From IMG/VR virus record IMGVR_UViG_2554235419_000004: DNA of 32,959 nt. One strand, 5' to 3'. The notes below the pieces were generated by a model. It made no database searches, was not told the DNA's origin, and saw only the letters and a program-made list of their open reading frames with translations. This stretch comes from a virus (Duplodnaviria > Heunggongvirae > Uroviricota > Caudoviricetes). Shown here one piece after another: positions 3,591 to 28,897 of this stretch; position 1 is the first letter of the stretch, and each line of letters starts with the position of its first letter. The position numbers were made by a program, and so were the translations under genes.

Positions 3591-6038
3591 TTAACCGTCA
3601 TGCATCATGCTGGCACGGGCGCGCGCACGTTTATCCCGCTCGTATTTTTCGAGCGCATCCTGTAACTGGCGGTCGAGCTGAGTCCCCGGCGCAGTACCGC
3701 CCGTCAGACTGATGTGATATTCGTTTTTACTCTGGTCCACATAAGAGCGGCCAGCCGGTGCCGTAACCGGCTGATAAGCCTGATAGCCTGCATAAGAGCT
3801 GGTCGCCGGAATATAACCACCGGTGCCATACGTGGCGGCATGAGTTCTGGCGGCAGTCTGGTCAAGTGCGTCAGACTCTTTGTTGATAACACCGAGTTTT
3901 TCCAGTACCCAGTCAATACCACTGCGCAGTTTGTTGAACGCACTAAGCGGCAGCATCAACGCGTCAGCCAGTGCCTGCCCGAACATGACGCCCGTGTCAC
4001 GGCAACGATTCAGGGTGTCCTGGGTGGCTTTGACCGGGGCAATCAGGTTTTTAAACCACTGCCACGCGGCCTGTAACTTTTCACCCAGCCAGTCAAACAC
4101 CGGTTTAAGTGGCGTGAACAGTTCCCCCACCGGCGCAAATGCCGCTTTCAGCCCTTCCACCACACCGCCAAAGAATGCGCTGACAGGCTCCCAGTATTTA
4201 CGGATAAGCAACGCCCCGGCGACAATGGCGGCCACCACGGCCACAACCGGCCAGCTAATCGCCCCGATGGCGGTTATAACAGCACTGCCAACCGTCGTGA
4301 AGATTGCCCCCATTGCGCCTGCTGCCGCGATGATGGCATTGATGCCGGTGATAACCGGCCAGGCTACAAGACCAATGGCACCGATGATGCCAGTAAGTGC
4401 CAGCGCGCCACCGGCAATGAGGCCAATGGTTGACGCCAGTGATTTGTTTTTCTGGATCCAGCCGTCGAGTTTTAACACATACTTTGTGGCCGTCTGCGTG
4501 AGCTTACGCAGCGCGCCTTCCTGCTGGTCAAACAGGTCAGTCCCCACCGCCTCATAAGCGGACTGAAACTCCTTAAAGTCACCGCCGAGGTTGTCCTGCA
4601 TGATATTTACCAGCTCTGCGGTCTTCCCGTCTGAGGCTTTAAACGCAGCGGTCAGTTTGTCCAGCTTTCCGGTTGAGGCGGCAGTCATCAGCACAGCGGC
4701 GGCTGAGCTGGCCTCCTCCCCGAAAATGGTTTTCATGTATTCAGCCTGCTGGGCAGTACCGAGCCGGTTTTTCTCAAAACTGGCCTGCATTTCTTTCAGA
4801 ATGGTAAATACTGGTCGGGTGTTTCCCTTGCTGTCTGAGGTTTTCACACCAAGCTCTTTCAGTGCATCCCATGCTTTTCCCGTCGGTGCCTGCAGGCGGC
4901 TTAACACGGCACGGCTTCCCGTCCCCGCCATTGAACCGGTAATTTTTGCGTCATGCAGCGCCCCGACCATTGCGGCGGTTTCTTCAATGCTGACACCGGC
5001 ATTTTTTGCCACTGGTGCGGCATAGGTCAGCGCATCGCTCATACCGTCAAAATCGGCGGCGGTTTTGTTCATCGTCATGGAGAGAACATCCCCGATATGA
5101 GCGACCTTATCGTTTGAAAGCTGAAAGGCGGATTTCATCCCCATCAGCAGGGCGGCGTTTTCTTCCATCGTGCGGCGGTTCGCCAGCGCCATATTCAGCG
5201 TGACCGGCGTTGCCGCCTGAATGGCATCAACATCCCCACCGGCTTTCGCAATGATAATCTGCGCACCGGCAGCATCATCCGCCGAGGCGGCAGTATTGTC
5301 GCCGAGCTGGCGCGCCTGTTTGCGGAGCGCGGCCATTTCGGCGGAATCTTTTGCCACACCGAGCACGGCCTGCAATTCTGAGTTTTTCTGCGCAAACTCA
5401 TAACCGGGCATCAGCAGCTTAACTCCGGCCATCGTTCCCGCCGCCGCAATCCCCACACCGGCAGCGCCCACTGAGGCCATATTTCCGGCAAGTTCTTTTC
5501 CTGCCTGATAACGCTGTTTGACTGCGTTAAGTTTTGCCTGTTGTGCACTGACACGCGCCAGCGCGTCACGCTGCCGGTTAAGCTGTGCGGTGGTTTCACT
5601 GATACGGTTTTTCAGCCCCTGCTCATCATGTGCAAGATTGCGGGTATTAATTCCCACAGCGGCCAGTTCCCGCTGCTGGCGTTTAACGGAATCCGTCAGG
5701 CGGTTATATTTCGCCTGTAAGTCCTCCGCCGCACGCTTTGCGGATTCCAGCACTTTCGCCTGAGCACGGGTCGGACGTTCAGTGTTTTTAAACTGTGTGG
5801 CAAGTGCTTCGGCCTCCTGCCGTGCCTTTTCAAGTGCATGACCAGTCACGGCGAGCTGTGCACTGGTCTTGCGAAACCCCTCAATACGGGATGCCTGACC
5901 GTTCAGCTCGCGCAGTGATTTTTGTGTTTCCCGGATATCCCCCGACAGCGACTTACTCGCTGTGCGGATGGATTTAAACGGGCGGGATGCCTGGTCAACA
6001 GCCCTGAGCAATACCTGTAATTTTACATTGTTACTCAT
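3591..6038 (-). CDS. T: Tail tape measure protein gpT, 815 aa
   Basis: 815-aa ORF with Ala/Gly-rich coiled and hydrophobic segments; follows E/E' as in P2; length identical to P2 gpT as recalled. Confidence 0.85.
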   Translation of the reverse strand: MSNNVKLQVLLRAVDQASRPFKSIRTASKSLSGDIRETQKSLRELNGQASRIEGFRKTSAQLAVTGHALEKARQEAEALATQFKNTERPTRAQAKVLESAKRAAEDLQAKYNRLTDSVKRQQRELAAVGINTRNLAHDEQGLKNRISETTAQLNRQRDALARVSAQQAKLNAVKQRYQAGKELAGNMASVGAAGVGIAAAGTMAGVKLLMPGYEFAQKNSELQAVLGVAKDSAEMAALRKQARQLGDNTAASADDAAGAQIIIAKAGGDVDAIQAATPVTLNMALANRRTMEENAALLMGMKSAFQLSNDKVAHIGDVLSMTMNKTAADFDGMSDALTYAAPVAKNAGVSIEETAAMVGALHDAKITGSMAGTGSRAVLSRLQAPTGKAWDALKELGVKTSDSKGNTRPVFTILKEMQASFEKNRLGTAQQAEYMKTIFGEEASSAAAVLMTAASTGKLDKLTAAFKASDGKTAELVNIMQDNLGGDFKEFQSAYEAVGTDLFDQQEGALRKLTQTATKYVLKLDGWIQKNKSLASTIGLIAGGALALTGIIGAIGLVAWPVITGINAIIAAAGAMGAIFTTVGSAVITAIGAISWPVVAVVAAIVAGALLIRKYWEPVSAFFGGVVEGLKAAFAPVGELFTPLKPVFDWLGEKLQAAWQWFKNLIAPVKATQDTLNRCRDTGVMFGQALADALMLPLSAFNKLRSGIDWVLEKLGVINKESDALDQTAARTHAATYGTGGYIPATSSYAGYQAYQPVTAPAGRSYVDQSKNEYHISLTGGTAPGTQLDRQLQDALEKYERDKRARARASMMHDG

Positions 6039-7045: not shown

Positions 7046-8236
7046 TTAATTGCTGTTAACCGAGGTGACCAGATTTGCCAGATATTTATCGGTGATACGC
7101 TGGCGCAGGGTCAGGTTTTCGAGAGGAGGCACCGGGGTATAGTCGTAGTCGATATACAGTTTTCCGGCCTTGAGGGTTTCCGCATCGTTGGATTCTTCGC
7201 TGAACCAGCAGGTCGCATCCACGATATAGCCGTTTGTTTTCAGCTCACGGAATTTGGCATTAATGCCGTCAACGATGTCGCGAATCAGCGTTGCGGTGAT
7301 GGGCTTGTCCACCGCCCACATGTGCGCCTCAGCCATCGTGTCGGCCAGCACCTGCGCGGTGCGGGTGTAGTTTTCAAAGAGGAACAGCGGGTCATCAGAG
7401 CAGGTACGGTTACCCCAGAAGCGGAAACCGTCACGGCGAATCAGCGTTGTGACGCCTGACTCGTTAAGCAGGTCAGCATCGGTGCCGGACTCCTGCAAAT
7501 CCCAGAATACAGAGGCACTGATGCCGGTAACACCGTTTACCCCGACATTGGACAGCGTTTTATGCCAGCCCTGCTCCTGGTCGATTTTAGCGCGCAGACC
7601 CAGCGCACGGGCGGTGGCATACGCGGTGGCGGTGGTGCTGCTGACCGTATCCCATGCGAGGAAATCCGGCCAGATGACCATCAGCTCACGCTGGCTGAAA
7701 TTCTGGCGGTAGGCTTTCACCTCGGAAATGGTCTTACAGCCCCATGCGCTGATATATCCGAAAGCGCGCAGCTTCTGACAGACTGATGCCAGTGCAACAG
7801 CCACCTCTTTGGTATCCAGCCCCGGCACACCAAGAATACGCGGTTTAACACCGGTTACCGACTCTGCCGCCAGCAGAGCTTTCAGTCCGGTATACTGACC
7901 ATTTTCGTCGGTGGTGCCGATGATATTGGAAACGGTCTGCGCGAGCTTCGTTTCTTCGTCGTCGCCGGTTCCGTCTTCCACGCGCACGACAACGGTGACC
8001 GGTTTTGACTGGTCAGCGATGGCCTGCAACGACGCCGCCAGCGTACCTTTTTTACCGGCCTTTGCAATTGCGCTCTGCACATTGGTAATCAGCACCGGTT
8101 TATTGAGGGGGAAGCTTTCCGCATCCGCATCGCTGGCCGTGCAGACCATGCCGACAATGGCGGTGGATACAGTGGAAATGACGCGGGTGCCGTCGTTAAT
8201 CTCCAGCACCTGCACGCCATGATGATAGTCGCTCAT
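7046..8236 (-). CDS. FI: Contractile tail sheath protein gpFI, 396 aa
   Basis: 396-aa ORF; length and position as P2 gpFI. Confidence 0.85.
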   Translation of the reverse strand: MSDYHHGVQVLEINDGTRVISTVSTAIVGMVCTASDADAESFPLNKPVLITNVQSAIAKAGKKGTLAASLQAIADQSKPVTVVVRVEDGTGDDEETKLAQTVSNIIGTTDENGQYTGLKALLAAESVTGVKPRILGVPGLDTKEVAVALASVCQKLRAFGYISAWGCKTISEVKAYRQNFSQRELMVIWPDFLAWDTVSSTTATAYATARALGLRAKIDQEQGWHKTLSNVGVNGVTGISASVFWDLQESGTDADLLNESGVTTLIRRDGFRFWGNRTCSDDPLFLFENYTRTAQVLADTMAEAHMWAVDKPITATLIRDIVDGINAKFRELKTNGYIVDATCWFSEESNDAETLKAGKLYIDYDYTPVPPLENLTLRQRITDKYLANLVTSVNSN

Positions 8237-8295
8237 CCGTTTAACTCCGTGGTTAATGGGTGAGTGGTATTTTCAGTTGTGCCGGAGATGTCAGG

Positions 8296-8889
8296 CTATT
8301 TGTCCCGGTTGGCTAAGGGATGACACAATTTATTCTTTGTCGCTGATGAGGGAAATTTTTTATAGAGCGTGGACAGACCAATATCAAAAATCAGTGCCAC
8401 GCGTTGACGTGACTCCCCTGCAGCCAGCAAACGCCCGGCCTGCTCCCACTCACTCGCGGTGAGTTTCGGTCGTCTGCCACCAATACGACCTTTGGCTCTG
8501 GCCGCTTCCAGTCCGGCGCGTGTCCGCTCGACAATGAGTTCTCGTTCCATTTCGGCCAGGGCACCCATCACATGAAAGAAAAAACGCCCCATCGGCGTGC
8601 TGGTATCAATAGCATCCGTCAGGCTGCGAAAATTAACGCCGCGTTCGCGCAGCTCCTCAACCAGAATGACCAGATGCCGCATACTACGCCCCAGCCGGTC
8701 CAGCTTCCAGACTACCAGTGTATCCCCCTCCGATAATGTCCTGAGCAGTTTTTTCAGTCCCGGCCTGTCGGACTTCGTGCCGCTGATTTTGTCCTCAAAA
8801 ATCAGCTCACATCCTGCGCACTCCAGCGCGTTACGCTGCAATTCCGTATTCTGGTCATTTGTTGACACGCGTACATAGCCAATAAGCAT
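8296..8889 (-). CDS. Serine-recombinase DNA invertase (Hin/Gin/Pin/Cin family), 197 aa
   Basis: MLIGYVRVSTNDQNTELQRNALECAGCELIFEDKISG...VVWKLDRLGRSMRHL...GRFFFHVMGALAEMERELIVERTRAGL...: catalytic Ser in the VRVSTNDQ motif and a C-terminal HTH. GGGGGA Shine-Dalgarno 5 nt before the ATG at 8889. Confidence 0.9.
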   Translation of the reverse strand: MLIGYVRVSTNDQNTELQRNALECAGCELIFEDKISGTKSDRPGLKKLLRTLSEGDTLVVWKLDRLGRSMRHLVILVEELRERGVNFRSLTDAIDTSTPMGRFFFHVMGALAEMERELIVERTRAGLEAARAKGRIGGRRPKLTASEWEQAGRLLAAGESRQRVALIFDIGLSTLYKKFPSSATKNKLCHPLANRDK

Positions 8890-8944
8890 GAGCATCCCCC
8901 TGAATAAAAACCGGAGATGATGCCAGTTGCCCGTTATCTCTGCA

Positions 8945-8970
8945 TTTTCATAAACGTTGGTTTGGGAGAA
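8945..8970. other. Invertase crossover site, left (hix/gix-like, 26 bp)
   Basis: ttttcataaacgTTggtttgggagaa; its right half is the exact inverse of the left half of the 10784-10809 site; it encodes the conserved ...GLGE junction in frame. Confidence 0.75.
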
Positions 8971-9333
8971 GCGGCAAAACGGGATGTGGGTAACGGGCAA
9001 AACCAAATTCCTGATATGTCAGCGTGGGAGTGTGGGGGAGATACAACGACGGGATGGAGGCGAAGCCCGGATGGTTATATTGAACAATGGGGGCTAACTG
9101 AGGCCACAACAAATGAAGTTTTGATTAATTTTCCTATCCCATTTCCGACAGCCGTCATTTCTATTAATGAACATGACCAGGCTCCTGTGGCAGGGAAAAT
9201 GTCAGTATGGCAATTCTATAAATTGACTAACTCAAATGTCATAGCAGAGAACCTGGGATCTCTTGATAAAGGAAATCCATCCTTCAATGTTCCAACTGTC
9301 GCTGGTTGCCGCTGGTTTGCTACAGGAAGATAA
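8959..9333 (+). CDS. Alternative tail-fibre C-terminal cassette (Sv'-like), promoterless; would be fused to the H constant part only after inversion
   Basis: Open frame through the crossover site encoding ...NVGLGEAAKRD...; no plausible own start; immediately followed by the alternative assembly gene. Confidence 0.65.
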   Translation, partial: GLGEAAKRDVGNGQNQIPDMSAWECGGDTTTGWRRSPDGYIEQWGLTEATTNEVLINFPIPFPTAVISINEHDQAPVAGKMSVWQFYKLTNSNVIAENLGSLDKGNPSFNVPTVAGCRWFATGR

Positions 9334-9334
9334 A

Positions 9335-9775
9335 ATGAGTAAATATCTTTACGATGCAAAAACTAATATGTTTTACCCATTTACTCTGGAAAGTCAGTAT
9401 AAGGAGTCTGGGTTATGGCCTCATAATGGAGTTGAAGTTGATGAGGATATATTTATTAAGTACCTGTCCCCACCTCCTGGGAAGGTGAGAGTTGCGGGTG
9501 ATGATGGCTATCCTGCATGGGATGACGTACCGCCGCTAACTCATGAAGAACAACTGTCAGAAGCGGAACGAAAAAAACAGGCACTCATAAATCGAGTTAA
9601 TGAATATATTAACAGTAAGCAGTGGCTAGGAAAGGCTGCTATTGGTCGTCTGAAAGGTGAGGAACTGGCGCAATATAATTCATGGCTTGATTATCTGGAC
9701 GCACTGGAAATGGTTGATATTTCCAGTGCTCCAGATATTGAATGGCCTACGCCTCCGGCTGTTCAGGCCAGATGA
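9335..9775 (+). CDS. Alternative tail fibre assembly protein (U'-like), 146 aa
   Basis: MSKYLYDAKTNMFYPF...; C-terminus ...SSAPDIEWPTPPA parallels ...TSTAPDIIWPEQPEA of the convergent assembly gene; the 3' ends overlap on opposite strands, as in Mu U/U'. Confidence 0.75.
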   Translation: MSKYLYDAKTNMFYPFTLESQYKESGLWPHNGVEVDEDIFIKYLSPPPGKVRVAGDDGYPAWDDVPPLTHEEQLSEAERKKQALINRVNEYINSKQWLGKAAIGRLKGEELAQYNSWLDYLDALEMVDISSAPDIEWPTPPAVQAR

Positions 9776-10340
9776 TATCCGGCGCGGTGCTGGTATCTGT
9801 TGCCGTCACCGCGTCAATGTAATCCAGCACAGCGTTAAGCCGGGTTGTTTCTGCCTGCGTCAGTTTCCGCCCGGCCTGTAATTTCAGCTGAATCAGACTA
9901 ATGGAAGCCATTGCTGCATCAATCAGTGACTGGCGCTGTGCTTCTGCCGCTTCTACTGCGGCACCGTGTTGTGCCTCAGTATCTGTCACCCATTTCTCAC
10001 CATCCCATTTATCATATGGCGTTAACGGTGAAAGCGTGACATAACCGTTTTTGATGGCACCGATATAATCCACTGTAACAGCTGCGCCATTTTCGATTGA
10101 GTAAACAGTCTCATTGCGATGGTCTTCCTCATGGCTCCATCCCTTACCTGTAAATACTGCCACTCTTCCCGGAATGTTTTCGTCCGGGTCAATACCAGTG
10201 GAACAGGCGGGCATACTTACGCCAGTATTAATATATTCATCAGACCAGCCCGTATATTCAGACGTTACTGCATCATAATAAAAACAACGCATATCACCCG
10301 GCACTGTAGCCAGCCCATTTTCATCAAAAACAGGTTTCAT
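9747..10340 (-). CDS. G: Tail fibre assembly protein (gpG-like, currently in the expressed orientation), 197 aa
   Basis: 197-aa ORF directly downstream of H, start overlapping the H stop; Tfa-like C-terminus. Confidence 0.8.
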   Translation of the reverse strand: MKPVFDENGLATVPGDMRCFYYDAVTSEYTGWSDEYINTGVSMPACSTGIDPDENIPGRVAVFTGKGWSHEEDHRNETVYSIENGAAVTVDYIGAIKNGYVTLSPLTPYDKWDGEKWVTDTEAQHGAAVEAAEAQRQSLIDAAMASISLIQLKLQAGRKLTQAETTRLNAVLDYIDAVTATDTSTAPDIIWPEQPEA

Positions 10341-11623
10341 TATTTAGCCCTCACCAGAAAGTTAAATGCAATATTTCGCGGTCTGACAGCAACAAAATTC
10401 ACACCATCACCCACAGAGTTACTGTTGAAATTAAATCGTGAAAATCCTGGCTGATTTCCGGCGATGCCATCATGAAAGTTAATTGCGTGTCCAGCACCTC
10501 CGCCTATATTCCCGGCAAACTGAGAAAAGTTTGTAGCTTCCTGCCAGCTTAATAATTCGCGACCACCATCTGCACCTCGCCCGTCATCCCAGACACGAAT
10601 GAAATCACCGCGGGCTTCAGGTAATACCAGCGAAGGAAACACTTTCGCCAGCACAGGGTAATCAGAGGCAGAAAATTTCGCCCCGTTAAACTTCAAAAAC
10701 ACCATACTGGACCAGCTGTCGATTACAGTATTTGGCATTGCCGCGGAGGGCCAGAAGAACGGAACGCCAATAGCTGGAGCACCTTCTCCCAAACCAAGGT
10801 ATGCGAGAAGACCAGCCACATCTTTTCCACTCAAATGAGTCAGCGTCTCATCCAGTGGTTGCTTACCTGACAGCGCATTGTTAATGGTGGTGCTGAATTT
10901 CGGGTCATTGTTAATGGCTGCGGCAATTTCTTTCAGTGTATCCAGCGTGGCAGGCGCACCGTTAATCAGAGCGGTAATAGCGGCCTGAACAAACGCAGTA
11001 GTCGCAATCCGCGTGGTGTTATTTCCTGCGGCAGGCGTCGGCGCTTTTGGTTCTCCGGTAAATGTCGGATTATGTTTCTGGGCATACTGGGTATGAGGGT
11101 CCTGTGCGGCAATGTGGTTTCTCATCTGGTCATCCACATACAGCCTTAATTCCAGGACTTCATCATCCACGTATTTACGGGTCGCCAGTACCACCGACGG
11201 GTCGATTTTCAGCGTGATAGCTTCGGTATTCGTGACAACCAGAATCATGCGGATAGTCTGGGTACGACCGCTGCCTTCCTGTAACTGCGGTTTGTACGTT
11301 TCCGGGCAGTTCGCCACCGCAATGAGTACGCCTTCATCATCATAAAGCCCAATCTCACGGATCCAGAATCCGCCCTCGTTCTCAGGGATGATTTGCTCCG
11401 CAATAATCTGGCTCTGGTTGTTCGGGTCAACACTCAGAAGATTCAGCGGTGCAATGCGTTTCTGATTAATCAGTTTTGTCTGTGCCGGGTCTGGTGTCGG
11501 CAAGACACCATTCGCATCACCAACGGCCATTTGCGTCAGATTCAGCTTACTGCCGAGCATCGTCGCGTTAGCCAGCCGTGCTGCGCCCTGATTAGTCAGA
11601 ATGGCGTAGTATTTCACTGTCAT
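10340..11623 (-). CDS. H: Tail fibre protein gpH (constant N-terminal part plus the currently fused variable C-terminal cassette), 427 aa
   Basis: N-terminus MTVKYYAILTNQGAARLANA...MAVGDANGVLPTPDP...GGFWIREIGLYDDEGVLIAVAN resembles P2 gpH / Mu S N-termini as recalled; the crossover site is embedded at residues about 272-281. Confidence 0.85.
   Translation of the reverse strand: MTVKYYAILTNQGAARLANATMLGSKLNLTQMAVGDANGVLPTPDPAQTKLINQKRIAPLNLLSVDPNNQSQIIAEQIIPENEGGFWIREIGLYDDEGVLIAVANCPETYKPQLQEGSGRTQTIRMILVVTNTEAITLKIDPSVVLATRKYVDDEVLELRLYVDDQMRNHIAAQDPHTQYAQKHNPTFTGEPKAPTPAAGNNTTRIATTAFVQAAITALINGAPATLDTLKEIAAAINNDPKFSTTINNALSGKQPLDETLTHLSGKDVAGLLAYLGLGEGAPAIGVPFFWPSAAMPNTVIDSWSSMVFLKFNGAKFSASDYPVLAKVFPSLVLPEARGDFIRVWDDGRGADGGRELLSWQEATNFSQFAGNIGGGAGHAINFHDGIAGNQPGFSRFNFNSNSVGDGVNFVAVRPRNIAFNFLVRAK
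10784..10809. other. Invertase crossover site, right (hix/gix-like, 26 bp), inside tail fibre gene H
   Basis: ttctcccaaaccAAggtatgcgagaa; inverted relative to the 8945-8970 site with a shared 14-bp arm ttctcccaaaccaa; lies at H residues about 272-281 (YLGLGE). Confidence 0.75.
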
Positions 11624-12231
11624 GCGTTTACTCTCAGGTTATCAATTAAATGAATGGCCGAGGCCGGGAAATAATCCCCTCCGACAATAATGGCCTCCGG
11701 GGTGTAGGGATAAACCGTCAGGGCGTCACCGTGATAGCATCCCGCACCGGCAAAAATGTTGCCGGTTGTACTTAAACTGATAGCCAGTCCCGTCAGATGG
11801 CGGCTCGCCGGTTTTGCATCAGCAACGAGGCGCTCCAGCTCCTGATACATTTTCTCGGTAATACCCTGCTCAAGCACGCCAACAACGATGCGGAACGTCC
11901 CCGGCTCCTCGTTGAGCTGCCACCACTCCCTCACCTCAATCAGATAGCCAAGCGGCTCCACCACACGCCGGATTGCGCCTATGGTGCCCTTATGGCAGTG
12001 AATGAAATACGCATCGCGGATAACAGCGCGTTTTGTCGCTTCCGGCCACTTATCATCCCAGCGGTCAACCGAAAATGACCACGCCAGCCACGGCAGCAGA
12101 TTTGCCGGGCAGGTGTCCGGGTTCCACAGCTCACGAATACTGACCGGCGTTTTTTCAATTTCCGCACAGGCTTTTGCGGCGGCAACTTCAAGCGGTGATG
12201 AGCCGGTCGGCAGCAGTCGCGAATCACTCAT
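11620..12231 (-). CDS. I: Baseplate assembly protein gpI, 203 aa
   Basis: Synteny between J and H; start overlaps the J stop. Confidence 0.7.
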   Translation of the reverse strand: MSDSRLLPTGSSPLEVAAAKACAEIEKTPVSIRELWNPDTCPANLLPWLAWSFSVDRWDDKWPEATKRAVIRDAYFIHCHKGTIGAIRRVVEPLGYLIEVREWWQLNEEPGTFRIVVGVLEQGITEKMYQELERLVADAKPASRHLTGLAISLSTTGNIFAGAGCYHGDALTVYPYTPEAIIVGGDYFPASAIHLIDNLRVNA

Positions 12232-14116: not shown

Positions 14117-14182
14117 AACGGGAAGGATGCCGCCGGGTCATACCGGCGGCAATGTGACGATGAGGTGTCGGGAATGGCACAA

Positions 14183-22329: not shown

Positions 22330-23357
22330 TGAGCAAGAAAAAAGGGAAAACACCGCAACCTGCGGCAAAAAAAATGACCGCCAGCGCCCCGAAAATGGAG
22401 GCATTCACCTTTGGTGAGCCGGTGCCGGTACTCGACCGGCGTGACATTCTGGATTACGTCGAGTGCATCAGTAACGGCAGATGGTATGAGCCACCGGTCA
22501 GCTTTACCGGTCTGGCGAAAAGCCTGCGTGCTGCCGTGCATCACAGCTCACCGATTTACGTCAAACGTAATATTCTGGCTTCAACGTTTATCCCGCACCC
22601 GTGGCTTTCCCAGCAGGATTTCAGCCGTTTTGTGCTGGATTTTCTGGTGTTCGGTAATGCGTTTCTGGAAAAGCGTTACAGCACCACCGGTAAGGTTATC
22701 AGGCTGGAAACCTCGCCGGCAAAATATACCCGCCGTGGCGTGGAGGAGGATGTTTACTGGTGGGTGCCGTCCTTCAACGAGCCGACAGCCTTCGCGCCCG
22801 GCTCCGTGTTTCACCTGCTGGAGCCGGATATCAATCAGGAGCTGTACGGCCTGCCGGAATATCTCAGCGCCCTTAACTCTGCCTGGCTGAATGAGTCAGC
22901 CACGCTGTTCCGCCGCAAGTATTACGAAAACGGCGCTCATGCCGGATACATCATGTACGTCACTGATGCCGTGCAGGATCGCAACGATATCGAAATGCTT
23001 CGCGAAAACATGGTCAAGTCGAAAGGCCGCAACAACTTTAAAAACCTGTTTCTCTATGCCCCACAGGGGAAAGCCGACGGCATTAAAATTATCCCCCTCA
23101 GTGAAGTGGCGACGAAGGACGATTTTTTTAATATCAAAAAAGCCAGCGCCGCTGACCTGCTGGACGCGCACCGCATCCCCTTTCAGTTGATGGGCGGCAA
23201 GCCGGAGAACGTCGGGTCACTGGGTGATATTGAGAAAGTGGCAAAGGTCTTTGTCCGCAATGAGCTTATCCCGCTACAGGACAGGATCCGCGAGATAAAC
23301 GGCTGGCTCAGCGCCGAAGTTATTCAATTCAAAAATTACTCTTTAGACGATAATTAA
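22329..23357 (+). CDS. Q: Portal protein gpQ, 342 aa
   Basis: 342-aa ORF downstream of P and translationally coupled to it; synteny with P2 Q. Confidence 0.85.
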   Translation: MSKKKGKTPQPAAKKMTASAPKMEAFTFGEPVPVLDRRDILDYVECISNGRWYEPPVSFTGLAKSLRAAVHHSSPIYVKRNILASTFIPHPWLSQQDFSRFVLDFLVFGNAFLEKRYSTTGKVIRLETSPAKYTRRGVEEDVYWWVPSFNEPTAFAPGSVFHLLEPDINQELYGLPEYLSALNSAWLNESATLFRRKYYENGAHAGYIMYVTDAVQDRNDIEMLRENMVKSKGRNNFKNLFLYAPQGKADGIKIIPLSEVATKDDFFNIKKASAADLLDAHRIPFQLMGGKPENVGSLGDIEKVAKVFVRNELIPLQDRIREINGWLSAEVIQFKNYSLDDN

Positions 23358-23376
23358 CCCAATATTTAGATGATAA

Positions 23377-23424
23377 TTAGCCCTAGCATTTGCCGGGGCT
23401 AATAATTGCAGGATTTTATTTTTT
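23377..23424. terminator. Hairpin plus T-rich tract between convergent Q and the cargo operon (candidate bidirectional terminator)
   Basis: ttagccc...gggctaa inverted repeat (23377-23402) followed by attttatttttt on the plus strand. Confidence 0.35.
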
Positions 23425-23988
23425 CATATTGTATATAAAGTCACAAATATGCGCCAGTGATAATCTGTTATAGTTTTCCAATGTAAACACAGGATAATTA
23501 TAGCAAATTTCAGGAGGAGGCAATTGCGAGCGAACAGTTGTTTTTTTAGCTGATTGCTGCCTCCTCGATAATTTACTTATTACACCAATGTAATCCACTT
23601 TTCTTGACAAATGCCCATGTAAATTCAATACAGAATATAGCCACTTACAAAAATGAATGCCAGTAACTACCTGTTTAGCCGCACCATTTGAGTTATAAGA
23701 TTTGAGATCTATTACGATAAAATAATCTACGTCTTTGTGCGACGTAACAAAAATTCCATCACAAACAGAGCATACTCCTGGTAAAGCAGAAGATTTTAAA
23801 AATTTCCAGACTGGTTTAGAAATACTATTAGAATCTAGCGAAAATCCATAGATACCATTTCCGTTTACCAGTAATTTTTTATTTGTAGCACCTGGGTTCT
23901 CTTCGCATACAACCCAGCATTCCTGCTCTCGCATTAATTGAAATGTAGGATCGATGCAACTTTGTATTACATTGATAATATTACTCAT
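23416..23988 (-). CDS. Unknown 190-aa protein, second gene of the AT-rich cargo operon; candidate effector of a defence system
   Basis: ATG overlaps the stop of the upstream ATPase gene (ATGAGTAA, 8-nt gene overlap); GAGGA Shine-Dalgarno; AT-rich codon usage unlike the phage backbone; no motif I can assign with confidence. Confidence 0.7.
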   Translation of the reverse strand: MSNIINVIQSCIDPTFQLMREQECWVVCEENPGATNKKLLVNGNGIYGFSLDSNSISKPVWKFLKSSALPGVCSVCDGIFVTSHKDVDYFIVIDLKSYNSNGAAKQVVTGIHFCKWLYSVLNLHGHLSRKVDYIGVISKLSRRQQSAKKTTVRSQLPPPEICYNYPVFTLENYNRLSLAHICDFIYNMKK

Positions 23989-25414
23989 CTACATCCTCAC
24001 TATCAGAGGCATTCTCCACCAAGGAGTAATATATTTCATCATTATCGTCATTAATGGCATTAATTACTTCATCAAAAGTTACAGCATTAATCCCTTCATT
24101 TGACTTCTGCATTTCATTGACTGAGCCATTATCAAATAAATACGCAGCGACTAGGTTAGAGTCTAAAATTGAGTCGATGCTAATCCCTTGCTTCTGCATG
24201 ATAGCGTTTCGTTTTTCAATCATATTTTCAGAAACGCCATGCAACATAATCAAGCTATTGATTTCTTTCACAAAATAATCACTGTGAGTACTAACAATAA
24301 CCCGAATACCAGAGTTAACTAGCTTTGCTAAAAATCTTGCAATTACTCGCTGATTTGACGGGTGTAAATTTAACTCGGGTTCGTCAATCATTAAAATATC
24401 ACCAGTTTTTGCTTGGTGCTCTAAATAAAACCACAGGCCAAACAAACTTTTAACAGTGGATGACGATAAATGAAGTTCAATTTTACTTGCAGGTGTCTTA
24501 CCTTTCTTATACGTTGAAAAATAAATCTGCCCTTCAGGATCAACTGAATATTTTCCTGAAATTATTTTTTTTACTTCTTCTGCTAATTTATGAAATTGGC
24601 CATTTTTATTTTTCCTATTAACCTTAATTTCATTAAGCCAGTCTATGTAATTTGCTATAGGAGCAGAATACTTAGACTTCATTACATCCATTAATAGTGA
24701 GTTCAGATCGAACTGTTCTTTTGAGGCGTGGTGCAATAACGCAGTTCTTCTGGAACTTAATTCATTGAAAAAAAGGTGCAAGCCATTTCTTTCTGCGGGA
24801 ATTAAAAATGCTGGGCTTTCATCATACTCTATCTTTAATAACTGACTTAGAGTTAAGTTTATAAACCCATCAATTCTGGGAAAAGCAGAATCTAGCAGCG
24901 TCATTTGTATGATATTGCTATTTTTATCTTTGGATAATAGCATTACTTCTTTTTTGCCGGTTCCTATGACGAGGCTAACATCCAATTTTTTTTCATAAAC
25001 ACTTGATACTAATGATTCTTCATCTATAACCCAGTCAAATGTTGAATTAGAAAAAATTTCCTTATCATTAGTGTTGAATACATCTTTAAGCATTAAAGAT
25101 GAATCTTTATTAAATTCTCTTTTGATTAACGTAAAATTATCTTTTATCCACTCAATTACATCTAATTCAAACTTACCATTTTCACGAAGAGTTTTGGCAA
25201 AATTTGCAACTTGAGGCAATTTTAAAGATGGTGATGGCATATTTAGGAAGCCATATAACCCATACATAACCCATGTTTTACCAGTATTATTTTTTCCGCA
25301 TAAAAGCGTTAAAGGTTTTGCATTAATTTCTCCTGTAGAGATACACCCAATGTTTTTAAATGAAAATCTCCATGATGCTAATTTTTTTACGTTAATTTCA
25401 CTTTGCTTTTTCAT
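23981..25414 (-). CDS. ABC-type / AAA15-AAA21-like ATPase (OLD/SMC-like fold), 477 aa; first gene of the cargo operon
   Basis: Walker A LLCGKNNTGKT (res 38-47); Walker B/D-loop ILMIDEPELNLHP; H-loop VSTHSD; acidic C-terminal tail; AAGGA Shine-Dalgarno; AT-rich. Confidence 0.8.
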   Translation of the reverse strand: MKKQSEINVKKLASWRFSFKNIGCISTGEINAKPLTLLCGKNNTGKTWVMYGLYGFLNMPSPSLKLPQVANFAKTLRENGKFELDVIEWIKDNFTLIKREFNKDSSLMLKDVFNTNDKEIFSNSTFDWVIDEESLVSSVYEKKLDVSLVIGTGKKEVMLLSKDKNSNIIQMTLLDSAFPRIDGFINLTLSQLLKIEYDESPAFLIPAERNGLHLFFNELSSRRTALLHHASKEQFDLNSLLMDVMKSKYSAPIANYIDWLNEIKVNRKNKNGQFHKLAEEVKKIISGKYSVDPEGQIYFSTYKKGKTPASKIELHLSSSTVKSLFGLWFYLEHQAKTGDILMIDEPELNLHPSNQRVIARFLAKLVNSGIRVIVSTHSDYFVKEINSLIMLHGVSENMIEKRNAIMQKQGISIDSILDSNLVAAYLFDNGSVNEMQKSNEGINAVTFDEVINAINDDNDEIYYSLVENASDSEDVDE

Positions 25415-25665
25415 TGAGTTTCCTTAATCAATTACATACGAACTGATCAAACCATTGATCGTGTTGAAAAGTCAATACTATACTAAATAACCACGAAGAA
25501 TAGTGCTTCATTTTCCGTCAGTCCTAATAGGTTAAGATATATGGACTGTTTTCTCAAACTTGTTGCGCTCTGCTGAATCTCTCGTATGTTACTTCAATAT
25601 GATGAACATCCTAACTCTGAAACGGTAAGTCTATCGGTATTACATTTTCACATTGCATGAGCGCG

Positions 25666-25684
25666 GTGCTTTCCCCGCCTCGCC
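25666..25684. other. cos site (19-nt cohesive-end sequence)
   Basis: gtgctttccccgcctcgcc is the reverse complement of GGCGAGGCGGGGAAAGCAC, the P2 cohesive end as I recall it; sits in a GC-rich island inside AT-rich surroundings. Confidence 0.75.
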
Positions 25685-25968
25685 CGCCCGCTTCACGGGG
25701 CGGTTTTAATGCAGTTGCATAGATACTATGGATCCGCACCAGTCCTGACCGCACGCAGCCTGAACGGACATCCCCAGCGCATGCAAAAACATTCACTTGT
25801 TGCATGCATAGCTTTTTAAGTACGCCATACCGCAACTGTACATTTTTAAGCAATTGGCAACTTTAAAAAATTTACATTGCTTTCAAGACCTTATCATCCG
25901 TAGTCTCTGTTTTTTACTTTGAGCTACATCAATAAAATCTCAAACATGTTTAATGCAAAGCCCTTGTT

Positions 25969-26022
25969 ACACAACATAGAATGTATGTCTAGAAACAACG
26001 ACATACTATATGTTGTGTTTTT
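25969..26022 (+). terminator. Long imperfect hairpin plus T-run (candidate intrinsic terminator, attenuator or sRNA 3' end)
   Basis: acacaacatagaatgtatgtc / gacatactatatgttgtgt arms (7 bp + internal loop + 10 bp) followed by TTTTT. Confidence 0.45.
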
Positions 26023-26074
26023 CCGGCTCTCTGTTCGGTGATATGCCAAATCACTTTGCGTTTAAACAGAGCAT

Positions 26075-26089
26075 TATTTCAGGGCAAGA
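26075..26089. repeat. 15-bp direct repeat caagacttcgctcaa, copy 1
   Basis: Exact match to 26349-26363; the two copies flank the small ORF and terminator. Confidence 0.6.
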
Positions 26090-26162
26090 CTTCGCTCAAA
26101 AGTCATTCCACCTAAGAAGCGCATATACCGGTGGAAGTTGCCCTCTACTTACAGGAGGCAAT

Positions 26163-26276
26163 ATGAAGAAATGCTATTACTGCATTCTCGTTCTGGCCCT
26201 CTTTGGCTATCCAAACGGTAGTCCAAGTGGTTTGTCAGTAAACGTCAGTAATATCAATGTCAGCATTATGCTTTAA
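26163..26276 (+). CDS. Small hydrophobic peptide, 37 aa (possible membrane peptide or moron product)
   Basis: AGGAGG Shine-Dalgarno 4 nt before the ATG; MKKCYYCILVLALFGYPNGSPSGLSVNVSNINVSIML; immediately followed by a strong terminator. Confidence 0.4.
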   Translation: MKKCYYCILVLALFGYPNGSPSGLSVNVSNINVSIML

Positions 26277-26285
26277 TATGCTTCA

Positions 26286-26320
26286 AACAAAAAAACCACC
26301 TGCCAGGGTGGTTTTTTTGC
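26286..26320. terminator. Bidirectional Rho-independent terminator (A7-hairpin-T7)
   Basis: aaaaaaaccacctgccagggtggttttttt: GC stem flanked by an A-run and a T-run; can terminate the small-ORF transcript (plus) and the early operon ending with A (minus). Confidence 0.7.
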
Positions 26321-26348
26321 GCCCATCATCAATACGATGAAAGACTGA

Positions 26349-26363
26349 CAAGACTTCGCTCAA
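26349..26363. repeat. 15-bp direct repeat caagacttcgctcaa, copy 2
   Basis: Exact match to 26075-26089. Confidence 0.6.
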
Positions 26364-26578
26364 GACGAATTATGCGTCGACATAAGGTTACCCGCAATGA
26401 TTTTATTAGACTAAATGGATGGCCTTTTATGACCCGGATCAAACGGCTGTCCTTACCGACATGCTAGTCACTCAATAGCATTTAGCCTTCTAATTCAGCA
26501 TGCTATTGACCTTCTGCTGCCCCATAACTGCTCCGCATAAGCCATTCAATGCCATATCAAATCACGTTGTGTTTTTAC

Positions 26579-28897
26579 TCAAATGGGTAACGAGAACCCC
26601 GGCCACTCATCAGCAACCGGATACGTGAATTTTTTCCCGTCATAATTTACGGTCGCGCCACGCGCCAGCGCCTCAAGCTCCCATCGTTGCGGCCTGATAC
26701 CGTTCTGAGCGAGGTCAACGCGGATACGGGTAATTTGCAATCGTTCAGACCTGGTCAGTCTGGCAGATGGTGCAATTTCATGCGGTTTTAACGGGATTCC
26801 GTTTCTTTGCTGACGATTTGGTGTTCTCAGTCCGTGTTTTAATGCGCCCCTGAGCACCATCACGACCTCCGGGTCACTCCATTCGATAACACCGTCATCT
26901 ACCAGATTAAGCACTGCTGCGGCGTGCTCAGAAGGTGTGGGAGCCGGTAACGAAGTATCACCACCGGTGAGCTTTCCACAGTTATTGACAGGACTCCGAG
27001 GCGCGGCGATGCCGCTTTTTAAAGTCAAAGGCTCGACGACCGGAACTTTCGGCACAATGCGCCAGTTCGTCGTTCTGGTGATATGAATATGACGCGCGCC
27101 GAGATGCGGCGCGTAAATGCCGACCACTCTCTCGACCTCTTCCTCGTACTCGTTAACGTCATCCGACGGGCTACGGGCGACCCTGACAGTCTGACAATCG
27201 CGCGGGACATTTGCCCCACCCTGCGCGCTGATATACAACGCAAAATCACCACTGTCTGCGGCGGCGCGTGCAGCCTCGACGCGCTCGTCAAACTCATCAG
27301 CAATGCTGACGCCGCGAGGCAATTTGCGTAGTTCACGGTAAGCCCCCATTGTCGGCAGGCCAACCGTTTTAAATTGCGGGATGCGCCACGTTGACGCCCA
27401 TGCGGTAACAGCCGCTGCAGTGTCTTTCAGCGGCCTGCCGGTGTCGTTATCGAGCTGACCATCCAGTGCATAGCCGTCGATGTTTTTTGAAATGTATTTC
27501 GCGATATATCCCGCAGCACCGCCCCGGTTAAGGTGTTTTGCCTGAAAACGGTTTCGCGCGGCTCCTCTTTCATCGCCATCCTCTTTGAGCGCATAGCGAC
27601 GCATGATTTCGATAATCTGGTTACGCTGGCGTGGATTACAAAAAAGCATCATATGCCAGTGCGGCGTTCCGTCGTGGTGTGGCTCGACGACACGCAAACC
27701 GTAGACCTGTAAATCATTATCCTTGAATGCCGTGCGCATCAGGCTCCAGATACGGCAGAGATAACGCTGCGCATCCTTTGGATTAAATGCCTCATCGTTC
27801 CAGCCGTGATTAAGCTGCACGGTTTTACTTTCGCCTTTTCCTACCTGACGTGTCGGATGATACTTTGACGGCGCGGTCAGCGTGATAAACATCCCCACAT
27901 CACCCTCTGCAGCGGCGTAACGCTCAATACCGGCAATGGTGTTCATCAGCTCCATCCGGCGAATTTCAGGATTAGAAATACTGCCCATCACCTTACTGAT
28001 AAGGTCGATGCGCTCGCCGGTTTCCCTATTTTCAAGGTCACACGATTTAAGAAATTCCAGATTTGCCTGGCGGCGCGCACGCACATCACGAATGGCGTGT
28101 TTACTGGCATAAGGAGAACGGTCTTTATTGACCTCCCCGACAGCTATCAGTAACGCTTCATGCCAGCGCATACGCTGGCCTTTAAGCTGATGAGTCCACC
28201 ACTCATCGTTAAACAGACGGGCAATGGCAGAATATGCCTGCCTCGTGGTCATCTGTCCTTTACGGTATTTTTTCCAGTAAAGCGGGGAAATATTGAAAGC
28301 ACGTGCAGCGCCAGCAACATGACCATACAGATGCGCCTGCGCCTCATCCGTAAACAGCGATTCTTTTTCGCCATGCGCATCCACCCAGGCATCGCAGAGT
28401 TCCTCATACATCATGAAAAGCTGCGATGAGATACGGGCGGCAAACTTTTTCAGCTCCTTGTCATTCATCCCCGGCAGACGCGCATACTGGTCACGCTCTG
28501 CCAGAAACAGCAACGACGCGTCGGTGTTCATTTCATGGCGCTGATTCACACGCTCAATGCGCGGCCATAAACGACGCTGAAAAGTGGATGTGAGGAAATA
28601 AAACCCGTGTACCGGGCTTTTATTGCGCCGGATGTAGTCATAGCGTGAAGTAAACAGCGAGCGCAAAAAGTAAGGCAGGCGGTTAATCGTGGATAAAACA
28701 CCTTGCACCTGACGCATCTCGTCACGTGTAAGGGGTCTTTCGCGCCCGACAGCCTCGCGTGGCGCGTTCCATGCATAAGCACCGGTAAACGCCTTACCGG
28801 TGCCTGCGGCAAATGCTGACGGAGGGACAAAACGCCCGGAGGCTTTAACGGCCATATGAGCCAAAAGCCTCTGAACAACGCTTGCTGAGTTGCTCAA
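26579..28897 (-). CDS. A: Replication initiation protein gpA (rolling-circle nickase), 772 aa
   Basis: 772-aa ORF at the end of the early operon; size and position as P2 gpA (761 aa as recalled). Confidence 0.85.
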   Translation of the reverse strand: MSNSASVVQRLLAHMAVKASGRFVPPSAFAAGTGKAFTGAYAWNAPREAVGRERPLTRDEMRQVQGVLSTINRLPYFLRSLFTSRYDYIRRNKSPVHGFYFLTSTFQRRLWPRIERVNQRHEMNTDASLLFLAERDQYARLPGMNDKELKKFAARISSQLFMMYEELCDAWVDAHGEKESLFTDEAQAHLYGHVAGAARAFNISPLYWKKYRKGQMTTRQAYSAIARLFNDEWWTHQLKGQRMRWHEALLIAVGEVNKDRSPYASKHAIRDVRARRQANLEFLKSCDLENRETGERIDLISKVMGSISNPEIRRMELMNTIAGIERYAAAEGDVGMFITLTAPSKYHPTRQVGKGESKTVQLNHGWNDEAFNPKDAQRYLCRIWSLMRTAFKDNDLQVYGLRVVEPHHDGTPHWHMMLFCNPRQRNQIIEIMRRYALKEDGDERGAARNRFQAKHLNRGGAAGYIAKYISKNIDGYALDGQLDNDTGRPLKDTAAAVTAWASTWRIPQFKTVGLPTMGAYRELRKLPRGVSIADEFDERVEAARAAADSGDFALYISAQGGANVPRDCQTVRVARSPSDDVNEYEEEVERVVGIYAPHLGARHIHITRTTNWRIVPKVPVVEPLTLKSGIAAPRSPVNNCGKLTGGDTSLPAPTPSEHAAAVLNLVDDGVIEWSDPEVVMVLRGALKHGLRTPNRQQRNGIPLKPHEIAPSARLTRSERLQITRIRVDLAQNGIRPQRWELEALARGATVNYDGKKFTYPVADEWPGFSLPI

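Follow-up and report, generated by a model that had tools for sequence, protein, structure and literature searches.

A probable Gin-like inversion switch for the tail-fibre tip of Wphi2, a P2-like prophage of Escherichia coli W

In phage P2 itself the gene fun(Z) is located between G and FI. In the prophage of E. coli W named Wphi2, what stands at this position, and does it exchange the end of the tail fibre? The DNA analyzed here, a stretch of 32,959 nucleotides (the window), is as a whole this P2-like prophage. It is assigned to the P2-like phages (Peduovirus) by its P2-like gene order (ogr-D-U-T-E-FII-FI ... H-I-J-W-V) and by a nucleotide identity to P2 (NC_001895) of 94-98% over most of its length, in the modules for structure, lysis, replication and immunity. 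Wphi2 is inserted at cyaR/yegQ (PMC3032704), and it resembles a complete P2-type prophage with every morphogenetic gene intact. Homology to P2 is lost at 8317-11800, in 64 bp at 14117-14180 and in a cargo region at 23310-26591. Since the interval 8317-11800 as a whole lacks nucleotide homology to P2, the 3' end of I, the whole of H, G and Z/fun have been replaced as one block; the N-terminal part of H is 42% identical to P2 H. A preliminary description of this DNA had reported an invertase and an invertible segment in place of the Z/fun locus; they are indeed found there, but the exchange was not limited to Z/fun.

The invertase gene (8296..8889, minus strand; the same coordinates are given by PGAP) encodes a Din-family serine DNA invertase of 197 amino acids with the start MLIGYVRVSTNDQ and the catalytic residue Ser9. 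It lies just outside the segment, between a fibre-assembly gene and the sheath gene FI, as had been described. The assignment was made from Pfam (Resolvase, 2e-52; HTH_7, 1e-12), PHROG 125 (DNA invertase, 6e-101), the PDB structures of Gin (3uj3, E=1.6e-94; 3uj3/4m6f, E about 1e-94) and an alignment with Mu Gin, to which the protein is 80% identical across 181 amino acids. By its N-terminal catalytic domain with the nucleophilic serine and its C-terminal helix-turn-helix it is a small serine recombinase; the VRVSTNDQ motif aligns with Gin, the EQAGRLL motif of helix 1 is identical in Gin, and RPGLKKLLR has basic residues at the helix-B positions (47, 48 and 51). Invertase-specific residues for which contacts with Fis or the enhancer have been proposed are thereby present; in the EQAGRLL region of Hin these are Gln151, Arg154 and Leu155, with a proposed interaction with Fis (PMC3798978).

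A predicted recombinational enhancer (8805..8867, minus strand), identified by a scan with the degenerate motif GNNYRNNWNNYRNNC, lies inside the invertase gene at its 5' end. It consists of two Fis-like 15-bp cores, 8853-8867 (TGTCAACAAATGACC) and 8805-8819 (GCGCAGGATGTGAGC), the centres of which have the positions +29 and +77 relative to the start codon and are 48 bp apart. Two Fis sites 48 bp apart are said to be the enhancer rule of Johnson et al. from 1987. The same scan found Fis-like cores at matching positions and codons of Mu gin. The centre of the proximal predicted core is about 97 bp away from the crossover centre, and in Hin the distance from hixL to the proximal Fis site is about 100 bp (PMC3798978). 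Inversion may, as judged from these motifs, depend on Fis and the enhancer. At its other end the invertase gene runs into the P2 pF late promoter region for FI (8237..8328, minus strand), which was located by alignment to the annotated P2 region: homology to pF begins at TTGTG (window position about 8328), the invertase stop codon TAG (8296-8298) is within the conserved block, and the activator-binding site of pF, as aligned with P2, overlaps the last ten or so codons of the invertase ORF and its stop codon.

The segment next to the invertase is bounded by an inverted repeat of 27 nt (8945-8971 and 10783-10809; 81% complementary, 1811 nt between the arms), within which a 15-nt core, TTGGTTTGGGAGAAG, is identical at 8957-8971 on the plus strand and 10783-10797 on the minus strand. 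As a repeat this is unremarkable, further 26-nt repeats of 73% being present within the same 4.5 kb. We then scanned the window with TTNTCNNAAACCNNGGTTTNNGANAA, the 26-bp hix/gix consensus of Hin and Gin sites. The 32,959 bp contain two matches and no more, each with one mismatch (8945-8970 and 10784-10809), the number expected by chance being 0.00 (100 shuffles). The invertase-proximal site (8945..8970) reads TTTTCATAAACG-TT-GGTTTGGGAGAA, its outer half-site TTTTCATAAACG being degenerate, and the H-proximal site (10784..10809) reads TTCTCGCATACC-TT-GGTTTGGGAGAA on the minus strand; the central TT is the same at both sites when they are read in one sense. As is characteristic of the Din family, the two are imperfect palindromes of 26 bp that lie in inverted orientation and have the same central dinucleotide. 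Both encode the tetrapeptide GLGE in the fibre frame, on the minus strand as ...LLAYLGLGEGAPAIG and on the plus strand as ...IFINVGLGEAAKRDVG. The paired sites and the GLGE junction had been put forward in the preliminary description, together with the caveat that careful alignment might show the inverted partner to be absent; both the repeat search and the consensus scan recover it. No third site was found in the window using either the 15-bp core with up to three mismatches or the 26-bp consensus. A shufflon, as in one P2-like prophage of EPEC, is therefore ruled out, only two sites being present in the window.

The invertible segment (8957..10797) is delimited by the identical 15-bp cores and measures 1,841 bp, in agreement with the earlier estimate of about 1.84 kb. 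Its GC content is 0.40-0.47, compared with 0.56-0.60 in the backbone, and its GC skew switches sign in the middle. It contains two convergent sets, each composed of a fibre C-terminus and a fibre-assembly chaperone. In the present orientation, the tail fibre gene H (10340-11623, minus strand; 427 amino acids) is one ORF, in which a constant N-terminal part of about 275 amino acids (10798..11623; Pfam Phage_tail_fib N-terminal, 2.5e-62) is continuous with the expressed C-terminus Hv (10340..10795; 151 amino acids from GLGE), which matches PHROG 3100 (tail fibre, 3e-52) and PHROG 523 (tail collar fibre, 6e-41). The chaperone of this cassette follows downstream (9747..10340, minus strand; 197 amino acids; Caudo_TAP, 4e-28; PHROG 105, 1e-83). 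On the plus strand, the silent C-terminus H'v (8959..9333; 124 amino acids from GLGE to the stop codon) has a Gp53-like_C domain (2.6e-12) and also matches PHROG families of tail fibre and virion structural proteins; its chaperone (9335..9775; 146 amino acids) has matches to Caudo_TAP (2.8e-34) and PHROG 188 (9e-57). The two chaperone genes converge with an overlap of 29 bp. Within the segment H'v lacks its own start codon, the in-frame ATG codons at 8917 and 8920 being outside it.

The claim that inversion would bring in this second cassette along with its assembly gene is borne out in silico: flipping the segment converts the 427-amino-acid H into an intact H' of 400 amino acids, in frame. 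In E. coli B-766, PGAP annotates H' as an intact phage tail protein (WP_096147429.1). A constant exon outside the segment and two C-terminal exons with their own chaperones inside it, in frame in both orientations, are the organization of the Mu G and P1 C type. Among the sigma-70 promoter-like sites predicted in the interval 8200-11700 (four, with 4.7 in shuffled sequences, thus no excess), none stands ahead of the silent cassette. Terminator-like hairpins in the same interval are in slight excess (seven, as compared with 3.2 +/- 1.7 in shuffles), none of them a convincing terminator, including the hairpin at 8909-8928 between the crossover site and the invertase start.

Whether the segment is inverted in nature was assessed by searching with a query of 3,501 nt, both unflipped and flipped in silico, so that differences in orientation are differences between separate assemblies. 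The unflipped query is 100% identical in seven W-derived assemblies, and B-766 and CM135829 match the flipped one over its whole length (100% identity, 100% coverage). B-766 carries the prophage at the yegQ site of W and Mu at the Flag-2/fliJ junction of W, and since both insertion sites are common to W, it belongs to the W lineage. In the BLAST alignment with B-766 the breakpoints are located at 8954/8971 and 10783/10797, in the 15-bp core. Among related prophages with at least 80% query coverage the orientations are split 17:17, with 17 genomes for each. In the IMG/VR loci, one and the same cassette is beside the invertase in five cases and beside the constant part of H in three. The existence of a flipped form with 100% identity and the 17:17 split indicate that inversion really happens; by this comparative evidence both orientations occur in one lineage, as is expected from in vivo inversion by a Din-family enzyme. 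The preliminary description would have been contradicted by finding one orientation only, and this is not the case either within the W lineage or among its relatives.

Taken with the gene content, these observations suggest, with a probability of about 0.9, a two-state inversion switch of the Din type (Gin/Cin/Pin/Hin-like) that changes the receptor-binding end of the Wphi2 tail fibre. Under the Hin/Gin model, invertase dimers would bind both 26-bp sites and, assisted by Fis bound to the enhancer in the 5' end of the invertase gene, would cut both sites at the central TT/AA; rotation of the subunits and religation would then invert 8957-10797. The annotated V operon of P2 suggests, by analogy, that H is transcribed from the late promoter of this operon and is not expressed in lysogens. 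The late transcript would always encode the first 275 or so amino acids of H. At GLGE these would be joined, as the segment now lies, to a tail-collar-like tip of 151 amino acids, with its chaperone following, and in the flipped orientation to a Gp53-like tip of 124 amino acids followed by a different chaperone. With such alternative fusions, a lysogen population would release two kinds of virions differing in adsorption specificity, and a flip would presumably change the host range.

The enzyme responsible is probably the invertase encoded in cis, but it could be argued that an invertase acting in trans, the resident Mu Gin or that of a second P2-like prophage, mainly or solely flips the segment and that the cis gene is dispensable or inactive. 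The Mu prophage of E. coli W carries gin with 100% identity, and the orientation of the Mu G segment differs between two W assemblies, which indicates that Din recombination is active in this strain; the W chromosome has five places matching the 3.5-kb query. Moreover, PinQ inverts the P segment of e14, so that Din invertases work in trans on each other's sites (PMC12529663). Given the resident gin and such trans action, the activity of the cis enzyme is probable rather than certain. Nevertheless, the ORF of the cis gene is uninterrupted and encodes the catalytic serine in a protein 80% identical to Gin, the invertase is in all cases accompanied by the crossover site in the IMG/VR loci, and close relatives are known in either orientation from many unrelated E. 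coli hosts, which may also carry Mu. We therefore regard flipping mainly or solely in trans as unlikely. It is hardly credible that the differences in orientation reflect assembly artefacts or rare RecA recombination at short repeats rather than programmed inversion. The original assembly of W was troubled by its two P2-like prophages (PMC3032704), and the flipped record CP026085 ('DH5alpha'), which we rejected as a clean example of the flipped form, has an anomalous, frameshifted H junction that joins window position 9090 near 10677 and suggests that a mixed population was assembled wrongly. On the other hand, B-766 and CM135829 equal the in-silico flip over all 3,501 nt with breakpoints inside the 15-bp core, and this core, which lies exactly at consensus Din sites, does not have the length that RecA needs to recombine efficiently. 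An artefact is excluded by the balanced split among the relatives and by the presence of the identical module in 120 or more viral contigs.

A further possibility concerns not whether the segment flips but whom the flip serves. In a lysogen, the fibre-derived protein of one orientation might block adsorption of other phages to the benefit of the host, virion host range being secondary. Such a blocking role has been reported for StfE2 of the cryptic prophage e14, the product of a fibre gene that is inverted there (PMC12529663), and the silent cassette of Wphi2, with its in-frame ATG at 8917/8920, is called by PGAP as a free-standing gp53-like protein. Against this, Wphi2 looks like a complete P2-type prophage, the silent cassette is not preceded by a promoter-like site, and H, as part of a late operon, would be silent in lysogens; hence we consider a switch serving primarily the host very improbable. 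Equally speculative is a lysogen-level function in which a fibre-tip protein made without induction, for example from the gp53-like ORF, alters phage susceptibility like StfE2, with cross-talk between Mu Gin and the Wphi2 invertase forming a network that sets several fibre switches.

The locus resembles several known systems. The order of elements is shared with the Mu G segment and Gin: constant part, site, tip and chaperone, convergent chaperone' and tip', site, invertase. In both Mu and Wphi2 the invertase gene lies immediately beyond the segment and points the same way as the fibre gene, the crossover sites have a length of 26 bp and encode an LGL-x-E motif, and the Fis-like cores are at the same codons. 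The two differ in the length of the segment (1.84 kb in Wphi2, about 3.06 kb between the annotated boundaries of the Mu G segment), in the constant part (about 275 and about 170 amino acids, respectively) and in the central dinucleotide (TT/AA in Wphi2, TC/GA in Mu). The backbone is that of P2, not Mu, and the chaperones have no more than a weak match to Mu, that of chaperone' to U'. Homology of the tips to Mu S/S' or to the C-terminus of P2 H was considered and dropped, as BLASTP detected no similarity of either tip to S/S', to the C-terminus of P2 H or to the receptor-mapped fibres compared. The preliminary comparison of this locus on a P2 backbone with the switches of Mu G and P1 C thus holds, with a Gin-like invertase, paired sites, convergent cassettes and in-frame fusions. 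The P1 C segment with Cin, the e14 P segment with Pin, Fin of Fels-2 and carotovoricin Er are likewise Fis-dependent invertase systems switching fibre C-termini, and Salmonella Fels-2 and carotovoricin have P2-type tails; these were likened to Wphi2 by description, not by sequence. In Fels-2, programmed inversion is likely (PMC7953296).

Closer counterparts are found among P2-like phages. Escherichia phage P2 from O157:H43 T22 (KC618326), pro483, S164 and Salmonella phage MET_P1_103_31 have an annotated invertase between G and FI, with the invertase and the double chaperone genes positioned as in Wphi2 and a backbone 96-97% identical over 81-85% of a 24-kb query. The constant part of H is 98% identical to that of KC618326 over amino acids 1-257, whereas the variable cassettes of these phages differ from those of Wphi2 (42-62% amino acid identity); no phage record covering at least 80% of the 3.5-kb query was found. 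The proximal site of KC618326 has 16 extra bp relative to Wphi2, and we abandoned the idea that the Wphi2 site is a 16-bp deletion product of this longer repeat: at least 120 IMG/VR contigs have the proximal site in its Wphi2 form, and none has it in the KC618326 form, so that the short form is the norm and KC618326 the oddity.

In P2-like prophages of EPEC E2348/69, coexisting orientations have been demonstrated by sequencing and PCR (Goldberg et al. 2014, PMC4272514). By description, these prophages carry an invertase of the hin family together with alternative C-termini of the fibre; of their two loci, one is a simple two-state switch like that of Wphi2, and the other is a three-site shufflon with four variants, unlike the two sites in the Wphi2 window. 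According to the survey by Egorov et al. (2024, bioRxiv 10.1101/2024.10.15.618418), P2-like phages exchange tail fibre and assembly genes in the Z/fun hotspot, and this hotspot often encodes a DNA invertase with adjacent genes inverted; the description is at the survey level and does not appear to discuss Wphi2. In view of the PCR-verified inversions, the invertases in the hotspot and the at least 120 contigs with the site, the Wphi2 locus is not novel: it is an ordinary, probable phage host-range switch of a well-known kind, already reported for P2-like phages. The arrangement singled out as noteworthy in the preliminary description is present, but it is common. For biology, Wphi2 probably adds one more case of textbook bet-hedging in phage host range and contributes nothing new on the mechanism.

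The switch has consequences for annotation and assembly. In E. coli W, automatic annotation splits the expressed H into two fragments of a pseudogene and treats the silent cassette as a gene in its own right; because of the switch, both calls are artefacts. Assemblies of this same industrial strain differ at the segment only because of the flip, and mixed orientations can corrupt assemblies.

Inversion of a tail-fibre segment is well supported as a mechanism in the window. Across 8200-11700, the sequence matches E. coli W at 100% identity, and it does so equally in six derivatives of that strain (KO11FL, AQ15, SL112, HBUT-L, hubt-sl and a second W assembly). The window corresponds to NC_017664.1 2301721-2334679, from yegQ to yegR, and contains a complete P2-type prophage in the order ogr-D-U-T-E-FII-FI ... 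H-I-J-W-V ... int, with 94-98% identity to phage P2 (NC_001895) across most of its length. Archer et al. name this prophage of W 'Wphi2 (P2)', at the cyaR site, and report that genes of note are absent from all large mobile elements of this strain (PMC3032704).

We inverted 8957-10797 in silico within this 3,501-nt region and used the flipped sequence as a query against all complete E. coli genomes; B-766 (NZ_CP118014.1) and NZ_CM135829.1 match it at 100% identity with 100% of the query covered. The B-766 prophage occupies the same yegQ site as that of W, and the junction of a Mu prophage, adjoining the Flag-2 fliJ-fliI-fliH genes, is identical in the two strains; since Mu insertion is nearly random, B-766 and W represent one lineage. 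BLAST comparison of the window with B-766 placed the breakpoints at 8954-8971 and 10783-10797, within the 15-bp core of the crossover sites, the segment flanks being 99.5-100% identical. More distant relatives, counted for each orientation at a query coverage of at least 80%, were divided into 17 genomes with the window orientation and 17 with the flipped one. We also examined 80 IMG/VR loci retrieved by the sequence of the proximal site (the one beside the invertase): 54 have two consensus sites 1.0-2.0 kb apart, and cassettes (a fibre tip with its assembly chaperone) 85-98% identical to the expressed one adjoin the invertase in five loci and the constant part of the fibre gene H in three. 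The preliminary description had named a single orientation as evidence against a switch; both were found in the W lineage, in relatives and in IMG/VR loci. A further genome, NZ_CP026085.1 (22392-22516), carries the W-type prophage and its flanks with the segment flipped, its H junction being aberrant and frameshifted (window 9090 joined near 10677), probably through mis-assembly of a mixed-orientation population; its label, DH5alpha, looks wrong, given that DH5alpha is a K-12 derivative.

The segment is bounded by a 27-nt inverted repeat (8945-8971 and 10783-10809, 81% complementary) with an identical 15-nt core TTGGTTTGGGAGAAG at 8957-8971 (+) and 10783-10797 (-). Repeat quality alone is unremarkable, a 26-nt pair of 73% being present in the same region. 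The 26-bp hix/gix consensus TTNTCNNAAACCNNGGTTTNNGANAA of Hin and Gin sites has exactly two matches in 32,959 bp, at 8945-8970 (proximal) and 10784-10809 (distal, beside the constant part of H), with one mismatch each and 0.00 expected in the shuffled window. Written in a common direction, the two sites are TTTTCATAAACG-TT-GGTTTGGGAGAA and TTCTCGCATACC-TT-GGTTTGGGAGAA. Their central dinucleotides are the same, a requirement for inversion by serine invertases, and each site encodes GLGE in the fibre frame; the proposed pair of inverted 26-bp sites is borne out. The same scan found no third site in the window, which indicates a two-state switch; a shufflon reading was dropped, there being just two sites. 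The window form of the proximal site has exact matches in at least 120 IMG/VR contigs. At the corresponding position KC618326.1 (~3700-3760) is longer by 16 bp, GGTATGCGAGAAGACC, which duplicate the distal site on its H-constant side; IMG/VR contains no exact match to this longer form.

Domain and PHROG matches agree with the gene content proposed earlier. H (10340-11623, -; 427 aa) has a P2-type N-terminal fibre domain and, as its last 151 aa, the expressed tip, matching tail fibre and tail collar PHROGs; it is followed by a Caudo_TAP chaperone gene (9747-10340, -). The silent tip (8959-9333, +; 124 aa, Gp53-like C-terminal domain) lacks a start codon of its own within the segment and has its own Caudo_TAP chaperone (9335-9775, +); the two chaperone genes are convergent and overlap by 29 bp. 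Inversion of 8957-10797 yields an uninterrupted 400-aa fibre, H', as expected if the alternative tip is swapped in. The GC content is 0.40-0.47 in the segment vs 0.56-0.60 in the backbone. In E. coli W, PGAP splits the intact 427-aa H ORF into two partial pseudogenes and annotates the silent cassette (8920-9333) as a free-standing 'gp53-like domain-containing protein', while in flipped B-766 it gives H' as intact and the remaining cassette as partial; the invertible segment accounts for these calls, which are artefacts of annotation.

The serine invertase (8296-8889, -; 197 aa, Resolvase and HTH_7 domains) shows 80% identity to Mu Gin across 181 residues, matches Gin crystal structures at E ~1e-94 and retains the catalytic serine within MLIGYVRVSTNDQ. 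It also retains the EQAGRLL and RPGLKK..R motifs, corresponding to residues that are specific to Fis/enhancer-dependent invertases according to McLean et al. (PMC3798978). A motif scan found Fis-like cores matching GNNYRNNWNNYRNNC at 8853-8867 and 8805-8819, whose centres, at +29 and +77 of the gene, are separated by 48 bp and coincide in position with the motif matches in Mu gin; the proximal core lies ~97 bp from the crossover centre, the corresponding distance in Hin being ~100 bp (PMC3798978). At the level of motifs, these features suggest that inversion in Wphi2 may be Fis-dependent. The flipping enzyme in W may be this cis invertase or another Din enzyme such as Mu Gin. The gin gene of the Mu prophage in W is 100% identical to Mu gin, and the Mu G segment differs in orientation between two W assemblies (NC_017664.1 293568-294718 vs NC_017635.1), so a second Din switch flips in the same strain; Din invertases also act on each other's sites, the e14 P segment being inverted by PinQ (PMC12529663).

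In gene layout (constant exon, site, tip and chaperone, convergent chaperone' and tip', site, invertase) Wphi2 equals Mu G/gin, and this, with the identity to Gin, upholds the likeness to a Mu G style switch. The switch is an instance of an already known system, P2-type cases including Fels-2 Fin and carotovoricin Er, both of which PMC4272514 cites. In the deposited P2-like phages KC618326, pro483, S164 and MET_P1_103_31, annotation places an invertase together with two chaperone genes at the same position. For EPEC E2348/69, Goldberg et al. found different orientations side by side in each of two P2-like prophages, one with a four-variant shufflon locus confirmed by PCR and the other with a simple two-state switch (PMC4272514). 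We found no earlier work that explicitly describes the Wphi2 switch.

In P2 the opposite strand carries fun(Z) between G and FI, which places the Wphi2 invertase in the Z/fun hotspot; Egorov et al. describe this hotspot as often encoding a DNA invertase, with adjacent genes inverted (bioRxiv 10.1101/2024.10.15.618418). Replacement of Z/fun, as originally proposed, thus holds for position but understates the exchange: nucleotide homology to P2 is absent throughout 8317-11800 and identity of H to P2 H is as low as 42% over the N-terminal part, indicating that the 3' end of I, H, G and Z/fun were replaced together as a single module. Towards FI, P2 homology restarts exactly within the pF activator-binding site, whose conserved P2 sequence forms the last ~10 codons and TAG stop of the invertase ORF (8296-8328); the module boundary is therefore at the extreme 3' end of this gene. 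Among the 80 IMG/VR loci, the proximal site and a Gin-like invertase occur on several backbones (FI ~97% identical, ~70% identical or not detectable), and chaperone and tip cassettes are mosaic, which indicates that phage lineages exchange the inversion module.

Two other differences from P2 were observed. The orf30 of P2, which occupies P2 9439-10224 between genes S and V, is missing, the P2-homologous blocks being just 64 bp apart at window 14117-14180. In the old/tin hotspot (23416-25414, -), P2 old and tin are replaced by a two-gene PD-T4-4 anti-phage system, PD-T4-4_A (477 aa, AAA_15 ATPase, E=2e-112) and PD-T4-4_B (190 aa, E=1e-15).
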